Shown here in pieces: positions 2,093-33,955 of a stretch of DNA of 64,000 bases. The notes beneath the pieces were generated by a model. The model was not told the origin of the DNA. It ran no database searches and was given only the letters and a program-made list of their open reading frames with translations. The translations under genes and the position numbers were made by a program. Every line of letters begins with the position of its first letter. Within the stretch, counting starts at the first letter, position 1. Origin of the DNA: Phycisphaerae bacterium (GTDB taxonomy: Bacteria; Planctomycetota; Phycisphaerae; UBA1845); the NCBI GenBank assembly GCA_963666835.2, contig CAXXGO010000006.1, positions 1,696,001-1,760,000 on the forward strand, read 5' to 3'.

Positions 2093-2508
2093 GCGGCAGG
2101 TCTCGTGCCTCGACCATGCCCTACGATCTGCTAACCGCATTTGCATCGGCGAGTGAACCGGTCCGCACAGCAGGCCCTACCGGCTGCGTGTCATGCAAAG
2201 CCGCGGCAGGTCTCGTGCCTCGACCATGCCCTACGATCTGCCAACCGCATTTGCATCGGCGAGTGAACCGGTCCGCACAGCAGGCCCTACCGGCTGCGTG
2301 TCATGCAAAGCCGCGGCAGGTCTCGTGCCTCGACCATGCCCTACGATCTGCTAACCGCATTTGCATCGGCGAGTGAACCGGTCCGCACAGCAGGCCCTAC
2401 CGGCTGCGTGTCATGCAAAGCCGCGGCAGGTCTCGTGCCTCGACCATGCCCTACGGTCTGCTAACCGCATTTGCGTCAGCGAGTGAACCGGTCCGCACAG
2501 CGGACCCT
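2093..2508 (-). repeat. Tandem array, 110-bp unit x ~3.8 (REP1 + REP2 variant; BIME-like)
   Basis: TCTCGTGCCTCG recurs at 2101, 2211, 2321, 2431; each unit also contains GGTCCGCACAGC(A/G)G(G/A)CCCT. Confidence 0.95.
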
Positions 2509-2572
2509 GCCGAATCCACGGTGCGGAAGGGGCGATGAAGCCGTTGCGGTCGAACGGGCGGGGCCCGCAATG

Positions 2573-8091: not shown

Positions 8092-8187
8092 CGGCTGTTT
8101 TAAGGCAACACGCCAGTACGGCGGCCGGCCCCGTTCCTCGATGCTGTCATATCAGTCCGTAGGGTCCGCCGTGCGGACCATCAGCAG

Positions 8188-25243: not shown

Positions 25244-27091
25244 GGGCCTGTCGGTTTAGTCGCAGCAGACGGAGTATGGGTGAGCGATCTCCGTGCGGCT
25301 CGCGCTGTTGCACGGCTACGTTCTCCTCATCCAATCCGTGTCATCGTGGGTGTCCCTGGCAGATCAGACTCCCTATCTTCCCTAATAGAACGGTTTTTCC
25401 TGCGCGCAAGCCCTTTTAGGCCTCTTAAATGGCTTTCACCCGACCCTCGGCGCGCAGAGCTCCCACTATCGCTATCAGTTTCTTTATGTTGAAGGCTGTG
25501 CATGCCCATAACCACTCGGTTCGGACCTTGTCCAATCCACGTAGCAGAAACTGCCGAAGCCCCATTGCATGCTTGATGACTGCGTTGGGAGTCTCCGCCA
25601 GATGCGCCCGCCGTGCGTAGTCCTTCTTACCGGATGCCGTCTTCAGCCACGCCGCAACCTTCTGGCGAAGCGGTTCATGTTGATCATGTGAAACCGTTCG
25701 CCGCTTGCACTTGCCGGATAGACAATCTTCCGCCAGCCTGCAACCCTCACATGACAAACACCGATAGACCCGGTATTCCGAATCGGCGCCGTTCTCACGA
25801 CCCTTCGTCTTGACTTGATCAAACGTCAGCCGGCGACCCTGTGGGCAGTAATAGCAGTCTTCTTCCCGCTGATAAACGAAGGCGGCGCGGTCCAGCTTTC
25901 CCGTCTGACGACGACGAGGAAGCTTAGCCCAGTCCGCCTCCGGCACCGGGGTACTCGGGTCCGAACGTTCCGCCGGATTGTCATCCGGCAACCGCGAAGT
26001 CCCCGTAGGCATCAAAGGTTCAATCCCGCGATCCACCAACGCCGAGAGGTTGCCACCTGTGCCGAACGTCGAATCTGCCACCAACTGCTCGGGTTTCTGA
26101 CCAAAAGCGGATTCAATACGCTCGGCCGTGGGGATTACGGCCTCCGCTTCGTTAATCTCGTTGAGCACGTCCCCATCTACGATCATCCCGCACTCATCAT
26201 CCGCAGCGGCTACCGGATTGTAATTCGGACCATAGCCGCCCTCTTTATTGGGCATGATCGTCGAATCCGGATCGGCCACCGGAACCTTGGCCTTACGTTT
26301 CGAAGTGTTTTGGGACTTGCTATGCTTGGCGTCGATCTTCTTCGCAGCCTCCAAGGCCTTATGAAGTTGTTTCTGACGCTTCTTCAGATCGCCCAACTCC
26401 GACGGCAGGGTGTTGACCGAAACGCTGTCGCCAAACAGATCCTTCTCGCGACGATCTATCTGATCCGCCTCGGCCAGCAACTTATCGATCTGTTCGTCCA
26501 GAACACGTAATCGTTCTTCAAGCGTCTTGGCAGTGGCCGTCGCGTGTGGACTGCTATTCGCTTTAACCCGAGTCCCGTCCAACGCCACCTGATTCAGGCG
26601 TATCAATCCCATTTGCATAGCCACGCGGCCGATCTGTCGGAACAGATCCTTCAGTTCTCGTTTGAACCTCGTGCGGAAATCACAGAATGTCGAATGGTCG
26701 ATGATCCGTCCTTCCGTCAGCCACATGAAGTCAACAGCGTTACCACACGCCCACTCCAGACGCCGACTCGATCGAATCTTGTTGGTCAGACCGTATAGAA
26801 TCGCCCCGGCCACGATCTTGGGGTGAATCGGCGGCTGCCCCACCACCAGAACGTAATGTTGTTCCCAGCTTGCCCAATCCAGTCCATCGAGGATTTCCAT
26901 CAAGAGCCGCACCGAGTGATTCTCGGGGATGCGGTCTCCCAACGTCTCGGGAATCAGGAGTATTTGGTCTCTGGGCAGCGGGGCTCGGTTCCATCTGCTC
27001 ATGCTCGTTGCCTCCCTGCGACGCCTCTCTTCCTGACGCTCGGCCACGAACACCTGCCATCAAGAACCATGCCAATTAAATCGACAGGCCC
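25244..27091 (-). mobile_element. IS1182-family insertion sequence (1848 bp), 4-bp TTTA target duplication
   Basis: TIRs GGGCCTGTCGGTTTAGT / ATTAAATCGACAGGCCC; TTTA at 25240-25243 and 27092-27095. Confidence 0.92.
25425..27002 (-). CDS. IS1182-family DDE transposase
   Basis: GQPPIHP, SSRRLE, DHSTFCDFR, ALDGTRVKAN, DPDS, YN, ADS, CPQG, RRAHLAETPNAVIK, RGLDKV; RBS GGAGG. Confidence 0.93.
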   Translation of the reverse strand: MSRWNRAPLPRDQILLIPETLGDRIPENHSVRLLMEILDGLDWASWEQHYVLVVGQPPIHPKIVAGAILYGLTNKIRSSRRLEWACGNAVDFMWLTEGRIIDHSTFCDFRTRFKRELKDLFRQIGRVAMQMGLIRLNQVALDGTRVKANSSPHATATAKTLEERLRVLDEQIDKLLAEADQIDRREKDLFGDSVSVNTLPSELGDLKKRQKQLHKALEAAKKIDAKHSKSQNTSKRKAKVPVADPDSTIMPNKEGGYGPNYNPVAAADDECGMIVDGDVLNEINEAEAVIPTAERIESAFGQKPEQLVADSTFGTGGNLSALVDRGIEPLMPTGTSRLPDDNPAERSDPSTPVPEADWAKLPRRRQTGKLDRAAFVYQREEDCYYCPQGRRLTFDQVKTKGRENGADSEYRVYRCLSCEGCRLAEDCLSGKCKRRTVSHDQHEPLRQKVAAWLKTASGKKDYARRAHLAETPNAVIKHAMGLRQFLLRGLDKVRTEWLWACTAFNIKKLIAIVGALRAEGRVKAI

Positions 27092-27180: not shown

Positions 27181-27865
27181 GGCGCATCGGCTCCTTGCGG
27201 GGCTGGGGCCGACGTGCAACTCGATCCTGCGGCTCACGCCGTTGGCCGGGCAGAACTAGCGCCCTTGCGGGCTGGTCCCGCGAGCCACGCGGGCGGCACA
27301 TCGTCGTGCGACTCGGGTCATTGCGGCCTTGACGGCAGGTCTCGTGCCTCGACCGTGCCCTACGGCAAGCCCCTTGGGGCGACAGATCCTCTAGTCCCAT
27401 GGCGTAAGCCTGGGAAATCGATTGGTCCCGCGAGCCACGCGGGCGGCACATCTTTGTGCGACTCGGGCCATTGCGGCCTTGATGGCAGGTCTCGTGCCTC
27501 GACCGTGCCCTACGGCAAGCCCCTTGGGGCGACAGATTCTCTAGTCCCATGGCGTAAGCCTGGGAAATCGATTGGTCCCGCGAGCCACGCGGGCGGCACA
27601 TCGTCGTGCGACTCGGGTCATTGCGGCCTTGACGGCAGGTCTCGTGCCTCGACCGTGCCCTACGGCAAGCCCCTTGGGGCGACAGATCCTCTAGTCCCAT
27701 GGCGTAAGCCTGGGAAATCGATTGGTCCCGCGAGCCACGCGGGCGGCACATCGTCGTGCGACTCGGGTCATTGCGGCCTTGATGGCAGGTCTCGTGCCTC
27801 GACCGTGCCCTACGGCAGGCCCCTTGGGGCGACAGATCCTCTAGCCCCATGGCGTAAGCCTGGGG
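27181..27865 (-). repeat. Tandem array, 150-bp unit x4 (internally deleted form of the ~400-bp element)
   Basis: TGGTCCCGCG at 27273, 27423, 27573, 27723; each unit holds one REP1. Confidence 0.95.
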
Positions 27866-31361: not shown

Positions 31362-31660
31362 TGGCAAACCTCCCATAATGGCCCGATGCCTGGTGTTTGT
31401 GACGCGTAGACCTTGTGCCGATCCGGCCCCGCACCGACCGGCGACAGTGTATGCGAACTCGGGTAATCCCGCCAACCGCGGCGGTTTGCCGGCTCGCCGA
31501 CGCGGTTTCCCGGGTCCGGGAACTCTGACCCCGGCCGGGTGCCGGGTGCCATGGCCCACGCTCGCGTGGCCATGAAGGTTGGTAATCGCATGAAAGGCTG
31601 TCTCCCGCCGGACGGTAGGATGTCCGTTCGGCGGTCGGGAGGACCAATAGGGAGACGACC

Positions 31661-32848
31661 ATGAAGAAGGACAGAATGGTAGCGCAGATTGGCTTGGATA
31701 GCCACAGGAAGTTCAGCTCGGTGACGGCACGGGGAGAAGACAACAGGATTGTATGGCGGCAGCGTCTCGAGCACTGGAATCGGGACGAGGTACGAGAACG
31801 CCTGCAGTCTTGGCCGGTTGGGACTCCCGTGATTCTCGAGGGGACGTTCGGGTGGGGCTGGTTGGCGGACGAGTTGACCGCGGCGGGGTTGGATCCGCAC
31901 TTGGCATCGAGTCGGAAAGTGGCTGGCTGGCGGGAGGTTCGGGGAATCGCGAAGTCCAACCGGACGGATGCAGATCTGTTGTCGGAGCTGTGGTCGGAGA
32001 AGTCGCGGTGGTGGGAGGTCTGGCTGGCGCCGCGGGCGGTTCGGGACGAGCGAGAACGGATGCGGTACCGAATGAGCTTGGTGCAGATGCAGACGCGGCT
32101 CAAGAATCAGATTCACGCCATCCTGCATCGGCACGGGATCTTGCATGAGTTTTCCGACCTTTTCGGCCGGGCCGGCCGGCGTATGTTGGATGGTCTGGTA
32201 ACGCCGAAGGATGAGACGCTTCGAGCCAGCGCGAAGGCTGCGTTGAAGGGGTATCTGCAATTGCTCGATCATGTGCGTCGCCAGATTGCACGGGTCACGC
32301 GAGAAATTCGCCGGGAGCTCAAGAAGGATCCAAACGGCGAACGCTTGCGTACGATCCCGGGGATTGACGTGGTTTTGGCGTATACGATTCTGGCGGAGAT
32401 CGGACGAATCAGCCGATTCCCAAACCGGAAACACTTGGCTTCGTACGCCTTGTTGGCTCCGCGCGCGGACGACAGCGGTGATGAGGACGATGAGACACCC
32501 AAGGGGCGGCATGTGGGACGGATCGGTCGCCGTACGCTGAAATGGGCGTTTATCGAGGCCGCCCGCGGCGCAGTACGGAAGGATAAGCGTTTTCGGGAGA
32601 TCTTTGACCGACGCACAGACGGGGGGAAGAAGGACCGCAATCGCGGCTACATCACCGTGGCTCACGATTTGACGCGTGTGGTACACGTGATGTGGAAAAA
32701 GGAGATCGACTACATGGACGATCCGCCGGATCGTCCACGGACAGCATCAAAGAAACGCCGTCCGGCAAGAACGGCAAGGAAGCGACTTCGAAAGAAATCT
32801 CGTCCGGGAACGGGCCAGCCCGAGGACCCTATGGTCGTTGCTGTCTGA
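31661..32848 (+). CDS. IS110-family recombinase/transposase
   Basis: RuvC-like IGLDSH, ILEG, KSNRTDA; RLKNQIHAIL; Tnp domain LRTIPGI, LAEIG.ISRF, LAPR..DSG, GRRTLKWAFIEAA. Confidence 0.95.
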   Translation: MKKDRMVAQIGLDSHRKFSSVTARGEDNRIVWRQRLEHWNRDEVRERLQSWPVGTPVILEGTFGWGWLADELTAAGLDPHLASSRKVAGWREVRGIAKSNRTDADLLSELWSEKSRWWEVWLAPRAVRDERERMRYRMSLVQMQTRLKNQIHAILHRHGILHEFSDLFGRAGRRMLDGLVTPKDETLRASAKAALKGYLQLLDHVRRQIARVTREIRRELKKDPNGERLRTIPGIDVVLAYTILAEIGRISRFPNRKHLASYALLAPRADDSGDEDDETPKGRHVGRIGRRTLKWAFIEAARGAVRKDKRFREIFDRRTDGGKKDRNRGYITVAHDLTRVVHVMWKKEIDYMDDPPDRPRTASKKRRPARTARKRLRKKSRPGTGQPEDPMVVAV

Positions 32849-33000
32849 GAAGACGGCTCCAGGCCTCGTAGTAAATGGGCCGCCCGTACCGGACGAGATC
32901 ATGCGACCCCGCGCCCGGTGTCCCATGGTGGCATCGGATCGACATCATGTTGTTATGTCGGCAGGCAAGCGGTAGCGCGAATGGATAGATGGACCGATCG
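32797..33000 (+). ncRNA. Candidate bridge/seek RNA (two stem-internal-loop modules)
   Basis: Stem 32797-32821/32877-32899 encloses GGACCCTA (reverse complement of target TAGGGTCC); a second stem encloses ATGGATA (donor junction). Confidence 0.7.
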
Positions 33001-33374
33001 AGAGATCTAGTCCGAACCGGTACACGGACGAGACAGATACGAGAAAGACACTGGGAAACGCCCGCGGGGTCGGGCTTTCCCGCCTACGGCGGAACTGGGG
33101 GCGCTGCCCCCAGACCCCCGGAGTTTATCGCTTTGGACCAAGAGCAGACTGCAGAACATATGATAAGAGGCGTCCACCAGCTACGATGGACGCCCCTGCC
33201 CTTGACCAGGTCGTCAAGAGTCTGCCCTCGGGTCTTGCGGGCGCTCGGGTCGCACTCCTGCGTTGCCCTACCCTCTCGCAAGACAACGCCAGGATAATCG
33301 GATTGACCCCAATCGAACAGCCCCGTTGCCTGCCGAATCAGCAAGCAGCCGGGCCGAATGGGAATGTTTTATAC

Positions 33375-33399
33375 TTGACCGGGACATGCCTTTCATGGA
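33375..33399 (+). promoter_or_regulatory. Outward -35 of IS circle-junction promoter
   Basis: TTGACC + 17 bp + GA|TAAT once joined to the left end at 31583. Confidence 0.8.
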
Positions 33400-33955
33400 T
33401 AGGGTCCGCTGTGCGGACCACTGGAGTTTGGCACTTAACTAGTTAGCGCGATTGCTCTCCTTTCCGCGTTGGCGCGGCTGAAATCAGCCCGTTCACGCGT
33501 ACGCGATAGGTGGAGCCAGTGCCAGACTCCGTTCCGGGGACTTCGTGATGGACCATGGAGCTGACACGAAGTCGTTTGAACATCCGTCAATCATCTTGCA
33601 TCCCTGTCTCCCATGCTGTTCCGTACCTCAGGGCCCGTCCGTTTTGCCTGCCGAATCACGCCTTCGATCTCTAGTCGCAGGTCAATCGGGAGCGTGCCCG
33701 TTTTTCCGTTAGAGAAACCAGGCTCAAGATGCCGAAACCTGATAATACACGGGAAGTCCGGAATCTTTGCTCGACCCCCGGGCCCAACAGCCAGACTAGC
33801 TCTAGACAAAAAGGGCCAAAGTCCAGGGGTCCGCTGTGCGGACCAACCGACTTCAGGGAAACCGAGGCCCTCGGCCAAGTCAAAGAGGCACGGTCCGCCC
33901 GGTCGATAAGGCGGGGAGGTGCGTAAGGCTCACATGTCCAACTAAGGAGCTCAAC

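Follow-up and report, generated by a model that had tools for sequence, protein, structure and literature searches.

The 64,000-nucleotide stretch of a Phycisphaerae bacterium genome analysed here (the window; contig CAXXGO010000006.1, positions 1,696,001 to 1,760,000) contains a complete element of the IS110 insertion sequence family, which is 1817 bp long with one TA core counted at its left end (31583..33399, + strand). The data support the view, to which we assign a probability of about 0.88, that this is an IS110-family bridge recombinase of IS1111-type organisation that has been recently mobile and carries its site-specifying sequence in the last codons of the recombinase; a bridge-RNA mechanism is proposed by analogy with IS621 and ISEc11. 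Comparison of homologous loci places the site-specifying sequence in these codons and indicates that, across the lineage, it varies in step with the insertion site. The element thus encodes a predicted RNA whose target guides covary with insertion sites, a defining property of the IS110 family. By the same analogy the bridge RNA is predicted to be expressed, bound by the protein and required for recombination.

The predicted bridge RNA is ~234 nt in length (32799..33032, +), with its first 50 nt located within the open reading frame (ORF), and comprises an internal target-binding loop and a multi-branch donor-binding loop. The left target guide, GGACCCTA (32824..32831, +), is complementary to the right flank of the element, TAGGGTCC, and occupies codons E388-D389-P390-M391. 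Homologous loci were derived from genome scans (33, all of which were kept), metagenomes (the best 80 of 187 loci) and 41 related genomes (30 loci), a total of 143. A recognizable target loop was present in 96 of these, the remainder being cut short, distant or missed by the search pattern; removal of duplicates reduced the 96 to 92 loci, 74 of them with the right flank. Guide and right flank match at all six bases in 57 of the 74 distinct loci (shuffles: mean 3.9, maximum 14), with a manual rule fixing the guide register in one subgroup, and a perfect locus exists for 24 of the 30 distinct guides. With this genome excluded and one locus retained per guide string, 35 of 43 were perfect at 6/6 (shuffles 1.6, maximum 8) under a best-of-two register rule applied to data and shuffles alike. 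In this set the flank 7-mer occurs within the in-gene slot in 33 of the 43, compared with only one in the next 250 nt. The 5' part of the RNA coincides with the tail peptide SRPGTGQP-x-x-PMV, a peptide whose codons are invariant at their third positions within the stems whereas positions 32824-32828 vary freely.

The remaining guides lie downstream of the stop codon. The last bases of the short right target guide (32869..32873, +) match the TA core and one to three bases of the left flank. Among homologs this guide agrees with the left flank at position −1 in 74 of 78 loci, at −2 in 45 and at −3 in 37 (shuffles 57, 27 and 22, respectively), while no match signal was evident at −4 and −5 in these loci. 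The top-strand match precedes the bottom-strand match, the order reported for IS1111 elements. The right donor guide ATGGATA, which together with the handshake base at 32988 spans 32981..32988 (+), matches the right end and core at 7/7 positions and is nearly invariant across homologs. In 66 of 66 loci the donor-loop handshake base is identical to the flank base immediately following TA, also in six, from four groups, where that base is not G (A, T or C), as predicted by the handshake rule of IS621 (PMC11208158; this and the other published work is cited here from the portions of text available to us). The candidate left donor guide (32893..32901, +), aligned to the left end by eye, is imperfect and represents the weakest part of the model. 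The sequence TCATGCGA, at about 32899, was also considered as a donor guide but was dropped, as homologs show most of it to be a covarying stem.

A structural model of the RNA containing 35 base pairs was evaluated with 42 aligned sequences (the window and 41 of the 61 listed loci), the same sequences from which the model was derived. Pairing was observed in 97.6% of cells and two-sided changes in 12 of the 35 pairs; none of 500 shuffles scored as high, and the model also exceeded all slid controls. RNAalifold agrees with the model in the target loop and two donor-loop stems. A comparison with Rfam gave no relevant family, the single chance match lying outside the element.

The boundaries of the element are defined by four full copies and an assembly piece. 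The sub-terminal inverted repeats CATGAAAGGC (31589..31598, +) and GCCTTTCATG (33388..33397, −), the former conserved in homologs, are those given in the preliminary description of this DNA, with seven outer bases on the ATG side at the left and three on the CAT side at the right. TA is the sole sequence common to both ends, again as previously stated. Excision of 31583-33399 restores a GTAG-type repetitive extragenic palindrome (REP) termed REP2, with GG followed by TAGGGTCCGCTGTGCGGACC, confirming the proposed reconstruction; this 22-mer occurs exactly three times elsewhere in the genome. The interrupted REP2 (core TA plus hairpin) occupies 33400..33419 (+), its first G remaining behind at 31582. 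The end previously proposed for the element, 33419, takes in this REP and has been revised to 33399, while the start at 31583 is retained. The perfect REP2 copies claimed at 8159, ~33826 and ~63272 were not recovered as such: the copy at 8158 contains two mismatches, and the other two are degenerate and unmatched at ≤3 mismatches.

The genome contains five copies of the element, four of them complete with 0-2 base differences and one cut by a contig end. The sequence downstream of all four complete copies begins with TAGGGTCCG, while the left flanks of the five end in TGG, TGG, AGG, AAG and CAC. The right flanks of the complete copies comprise two perfect REP2 hairpins, one degenerate hairpin and, at C6:1566821, a site without the REP2 hairpin, even though the copy located there is identical to that in the window. 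In one other complete copy C replaces the G that precedes TA. Because one complete copy has no REP2 hairpin and another has C before TA, the programmed target is a short sequence, consisting of six bases, the TA core and one to three further bases, rather than the whole REP. The preliminary description had viewed the element as programmed against the REP, which is true of three of the four complete copies in the sense that they lie in REP2. Its expectation that other copies would share the same boundaries held (all four are 1817 bp), but the expectation that their flanks would be REPs failed at one site of the four. As read from these junctions, the element enters N-TA-GGGTCC sites at their TA without duplicating anything beyond the core; in this host such sites are for the most part GTAG-REP hairpins. 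The possibility that TAGGGTCCG is part of the element was ruled out, as the 9-mer is found at 45 sites in the genome and differs in homologs with identical ends.

Assembly of sequencing run X1 yielded a single piece corresponding exactly to 31583-33408, that is, the element and the shared 9-base target, at a depth ~3x that of the flanks. X1 may be the source sample of the window, and so its support for the boundaries is not fully independent. In run X3 the same span is covered by two overlapping pieces. Neither an empty allele of the window locus nor a circle junction of its element was present in the assembled contigs of four sequencing runs, which is not evidence of absence. At the level of sequence, the element is recently mobile in this genome, and it is real and intact and probably active.

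REP2, in which GTAG is followed by a short palindrome present in many copies, is a GTAG-REP; its motif has seven matches in the window at ≤3 mismatches, compared with 0.01 expected. Genome-wide there are 70 sites for the 8-mer TAGGGTCC and 31 REP2-like hairpins, 23 of which have G before TA. No REP2 was found within 900 bases of the eight Y1_Tnp matches examined, of nine in the genome, thus providing no link to a REP-associated tyrosine transposase. Four REP2-like copies at window positions 2160-2511 (−) are spaced at exactly 110 bases. A second, unrelated host repeat, REP1 (31541..31576, +; about 60 short matches in the genome), is located just left of the insertion site, and its position a few bases left of REP2 both in the window and at C6:351437 points to composite REP1-REP2 units. 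Downstream of REP1 at the latter site (L145, G000:C6:351479-351531) is a 33-base left-end remnant, the first 32 bases of which are identical to the element, fused directly to REP2; the position downstream of REP1 is the one also seen in the window. L145 has the appearance of a deletion that joined an internal TA of the left end to the right end, leaving one base unaccounted for, and half-match recombination is a possible origin. When empty sites were rebuilt across the lineage (53 distinct sites, four from this genome), 42 start with GTAG and 26 pass a strict test for a perfect 5-bp hairpin (shuffles 5.5). From these reconstructions the lineage appears to follow numerous GTAG-REP families, the TA core remaining constant as six bases are rewritten. 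In the L046-L049 subgroup, in which the frame of the tail is shifted, four copies target TATTCGAG sites that contain a different hairpin and are not GTAG repeats.

The recombinase (31661..32848, +; 395 aa) contains a RuvC-like domain with D13, E60, N100 and D103, a Tnp domain with S272 and, from about residue 362, a disordered tail. It matches NCBIfam model NF033542 at 175 bits against a cut-off of 140 and contains PF01548 and PF02371. This score, together with the layout of the ends, bears out the earlier assignment of an intact IS110-family RNA-guided element with IS1111-type ends. The predicted structure is most similar to IS621 (E 1.9e-12) and ISCro4, with a predicted local distance difference test score (pLDDT) of <50 at residues 362-387 and 389-395. 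The catalytic serine and its SG motif (S272-G273) are nearly invariant among relatives. The acidic tetrad typical of the family, DEDD, is represented by D13, E60 and D103 with N100 at the third place, which we treat as a variant rather than grounds for exclusion. Among the 120 relatives listed (62-100% identity, the protein from the window included), Asn occupies this position in 93 and Asp in 14, with 13 unparsed, while in 64 of 81 more distant proteins (325-410 aa) it is Asp, and none of those 64 carries the tail motif. Asn at this place is also evident in ISSm3 and in one protein of the table of Durrant et al. The lineage is found mostly in Planctomycetota records, the titles from the genome scans being mostly Phycisphaerae or other Planctomycetota; among the 40 best plasmid matches none exceeds 33% identity.

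The overlap between gene and RNA is a persistent feature of the lineage. The linker between Y351 and the GQP motif occurs in 25 distinct lengths of 60-198 bases; the length is divisible by three for 23 of these values and in 78 of 82 loci. In 79 of the 82 loci (one further locus gave no alignment) the stop codon follows the guide. As 14 of 15 loci in uncut genome scans keep the overlap, the metagenome cut-off does not explain the kept frame. Stops in the other two frames are more distant (median 36 and 41 codons, compared with 17), and selection may therefore act only against longer tails. On these comparisons, the reading frame through the 5' part of the RNA appears to be under selection. Two distant proteins, P0156 and P0172, have HPMV- or HPLV-like C-terminal tails, a hint that the overlap may extend to more distant members.

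Several observations weigh against the interpretation favoured here. The match between guide and flank is imperfect in 17 of the 74 loci, 11 matching at five bases and six at four or fewer; of the latter, L109 represents a tandem junction and in L056 the register is shifted, but in L037 the guide matches only one of six flank bases, with no explanation. The handshake base of the target loop displays no covariation with the donor (61 A/A, 7 C/A and 1 A/C), and the left donor guide matches at only 6/9 positions and covaries in scattered loci only. RNAalifold and a single-strand fold close the 5' arm differently from the present model, locally in the case of RNAalifold, which makes the long-range stem uncertain. 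The homologous loci are related, and hence the counts overstate their independence. The stop codon precedes or interrupts the guide in three of the 82 loci (L091, L093 and L104), and in four (L046, L084, L087 and L104) the linker is out of frame; the overlap is therefore not obligatory. Finally, the position equivalent to D102, which is essential in IS621, is Asn in this protein.

The covariation of coding sequence with insertion site might in principle arise if the protein alone reads the target through its variable tail residues, the nucleotide match being a by-product. Tail residues do vary along with the target, 96 loci displaying 46 three-residue variants, but the match is one of base-for-base DNA complementarity that includes third codon positions, the matched bases sit in an unpaired loop between conserved stems, and the handshake base, outside the ORF, covaries as well, making this explanation close to negligible. 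A real guide whose overlap with the gene is incidental is a far more serious contender, although we place it somewhat short of even odds. Here an ancestor would have lost its stop codon and the ORF run into an ordinary downstream bridge RNA, leaving an idle tail and no role for translation in making the RNA. The predicted disorder of the tail, the observation that most distant relatives cease to match near profile position 355, the few members that stop early or shift frame, the more distant stops in the other frames, and the fact that the ‘conserved' tail peptide can be explained by the RNA stems in which third codon positions are invariant, are all consistent with this scenario. Conversely, the frame is held across the 25 linker lengths, 23 of which are multiples of three, and any stop in a linker of 60-200 nt would delete the tail, yet only three of 82 loci stop before the end of the guide. 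A more ambitious proposal, which is possible but doubtful, holds that the mRNA is also the guide. The target bases would be translated, with the frame maintained such that translation terminates within the tip of the target loop, and the left hairpin and two promoters would decide between translation and the guide fold, in a lineage with a DEND tetrad that tracks GTAG-REP families through about 30 natural retargetings.

With respect to target choice, it may be argued that insertion requires the REP hairpin in addition to the guide match, a combination of sequence and structure reported for ISPpu10, in which a target stem-loop raises efficiency (bioRxiv 10.64898/2026.03.19.712850). The excess of perfect hairpins and of GTAG among the 53 rebuilt sites is consistent with such a requirement, as is the location of three of the four complete copies in REP2 when only about 23 of the 70 TAGGGTCC sites are REP2 hairpins. 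The copy at C6:1566821, identical to that in the window but in a site without the REP2 hairpin, argues against it, as do the 27 of 53 sites that fail the strict test, and survival within intergenic repeats would produce the same enrichment; a hairpin requirement is thus considered unlikely. It could also be proposed that the Asp-to-Asn change leaves the enzyme catalytically dead or crippled and that the element is mobilized by another recombinase. In IS621, mutation of D102 abolishes recombination (PMC11208158). The same study reports that D102 binds no metal and forms a hydrogen bond with G242 of the serine loop, an interaction that Asn could also make. Asn is widespread among relatives, and the five near-identical copies of the element are the only PF02371 matches in the assembly, which is 92% complete. 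As there are five such copies and no other PF02371 gene in the assembly, these sequences suggest that the Asn form works, and mobilization in trans of a dead enzyme is highly improbable.

The favoured reading, a guide located in the last codons of a functional recombinase, can be placed in a mechanism that draws on IS621 and ISEc11. The ends would join to generate a circle, bringing the −35 hexamer TTGACC (33375..33380, +) 17 bases upstream of GATAAT and thus creating a predicted junction promoter, TTGACC-17-GATAAT. A sigma-70 scan of the integrated element identified no promoter, as expected if the promoter arises only on end joining, and 30 of 58 homolog ends have TTG[AT]C at the equivalent distance. 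The 3' portion of the transcript would fold into the ~234-nt bridge RNA and be bound by a recombinase tetramer, with the target loop pairing with the target and the donor loop with the joined ends. Strand exchange around TA would then be carried out by S272 and the RuvC site, the third position of which is Asn. With respect to the circular intermediate of IS110-family elements, there is no duplication beyond the core, a junction promoter is predicted, and the predicted junction, CATGGATAATCGCATG, is present as DNA in homolog L109, a head-to-tail pair. In this tandem pair the junction (L109:1697-1800) contains a perfect TTGACA-17-GATAAT, and the second copy ends after about 40 codons. The left end contains a long hairpin (31596..31660, +), the 3' arm of which covers the ribosome-binding site while its inner loop contains a −10-like TANNNT at 31616-31621; these functions are putative. 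In raw counts, of 73 distinct left ends 67 have hairpin arms that pair and 70 contain TANNNT. A junction transcript would carry both arms of this hairpin and may be poorly translated, leaving its 3' end free to fold as a guide. The left-end stretch GTAGGATGTCCG was examined as an internal REP copy and rejected as a general feature; homologs keep only the hairpin with TANNNT.

The remainder of the right end (33033..33374, +) is longer than that of most homologs and contains a GGGGG...CCCCC double-hairpin motif (about 33094-33147). The motif, for which Rfam gave no match at these positions, was seen by eye in several homolog right ends, and a copy with about 80% identity is present in another multi-copy element of this genome (L144, G000:C1:1310288-1312135, and five other sites). 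This element, about 1847 bp in length with six copies at 99.7-100% identity, behaves like a recently mobile element and encodes two overlapping DUF1670 genes with no other Pfam match except helix-turn-helix models. Elsewhere in the window, 25425-27053 (−) encodes a 542-aa DDE transposase with a DUF772 domain (Pfam), presumably IS1182-like. Beside this gene, at about 27250-27850, is a tandem repeat with units of roughly 120 bases, seen as repeated peptides.

The targeting of REPs by IS110/IS1111 elements is already known, and the insertion itself is a further case of a known class. It is the dual-coding guide, the DEND site and the natural retargetings that lift the element above a catalogue entry. 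A target guide inside the gene was not found in the available text of the IS110-family literature, including PMC11187229, PMC11208160, PMC11208158, PMC13626964 and PMC13604230, nor in the accessible portions of bioRxiv 10.1101/2025.05.14.653916, 10.1101/2025.10.25.684509, 10.64898/2026.08.14.744561, 10.64898/2026.03.19.712850, 10.64898/2026.08.31.748434, 10.64898/2026.01.12.699009, 10.64898/2026.10.21.760802 and 10.64898/2026.09.09.750255. Because Siddiquee et al. (PMC11187229) list 17 elements without a long non-coding region and the flanks of Durrant et al. (PMC11208160) retained 50 bp of the gene end, an in-gene guide may already be in print or in a figure. The pipeline of Durrant et al. 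could catch such a guide, whereas surveys that cluster intergenic DNA alone (as described for bioRxiv 10.64898/2026.10.21.760802) can be expected to overlook the main target guide in this lineage. As the guide letters are the last codons of the enzyme, a changed target means a changed protein tail, each natural retargeting rewriting two to three residues of the disordered region, and the guide would be lost if such a gene were recoded or codon-optimized in its native layout. If the mRNA does double as the guide, each recombinase would be coupled to its own guide in cis. The in-gene guide provides a direct test of guide release from mRNA in IS1111-type elements. The homologs offer about 30 natural guide-target pairs on one scaffold, together with natural covariation of a handshake base, and an Asp-to-Asn replacement at a residue essential in IS621 is widespread among them.

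Among characterized systems, the IS1111 seekRNA elements ISEc11, ISPa11, ISKpn4 and IS4321 (Siddiquee et al. 2024, PMC11187229) share with this element sub-terminal inverted repeats with 7 + 3 outer bases, a long 3' non-coding end, a junction promoter (predicted here) and a top-strand match that precedes the bottom-strand match. ISPa11 also targets a REP, and the left end of IS4321 likewise begins TAAT, three bases and ATG. In contrast to the seekRNAs of that study, which were mapped downstream of the gene, the main target guide in the window lies within the ORF, although most of the RNA is in the non-coding DNA downstream of the gene (551 nt, compared with 78 nt upstream). The inverted repeat is 9-10 bp rather than the 11-13 bp usual in the IS1111 group (PMC11187229), and the protein, at 395 aa, is larger than the 330-350 aa of IS1111 elements. 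Identity to IS4321 is 26% over 76% of the length, and in a FastTree phylogeny of 94 sequences IS4321 was the most distant of the five references (4.5 compared with 2.7-3.6), which are too few to place the protein relative to the IS1111 clade. Five motifs of the recombinase were not found in the transposase table of PMC11187229 (392 rows, long sequences shown in part). ISPpu10 (bioRxiv 10.64898/2026.03.19.712850) is an IS110-family element that, like the one described here, inserts into a repeated intergenic stem-loop, with a structural requirement demonstrated in that system; no passage on RNA-gene overlap was found in the available text of that paper. In IS200/IS605 elements, too, the guide RNA of TnpB (reRNA) extends over the 3' end of the coding sequence for its partner protein (bioRxiv 10.64898/2026.09.09.750255). 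The TnpB protein is a nuclease and bears no relation to the recombinase in the window. The overlapping part in TnpB elements is scaffold, with the variable guide supplied by sequence beyond the element; in the present lineage, by contrast, it is the variable guide that forms part of the coding sequence. IS621 and its bridge RNA (Durrant et al. 2024, PMC11208160; Hiraizumi et al. 2024, PMC11208158) share with the present element the protein fold, a 2-base core, a REP target of the GTAG type (ATCAGGCCTAC in IS621, PMC11208160) and, as predicted here, the order of the guides (left target, right target, left donor, right donor) and the donor-loop handshake base. The IS621 RNA, however, is in the left end rather than to the right at the 3' part of the gene, its core is CT (the AG of GTAG) rather than the TA of GTAG, its tetrad is DEDD rather than DEND, and its donor loop differs from the multi-branched form predicted here, a form noted for many IS1111 RNAs. 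Judged by analogy with these systems, the element works like IS621 and is organised like the IS1111 elements, with most features of the IS110 family present except the third Asp.

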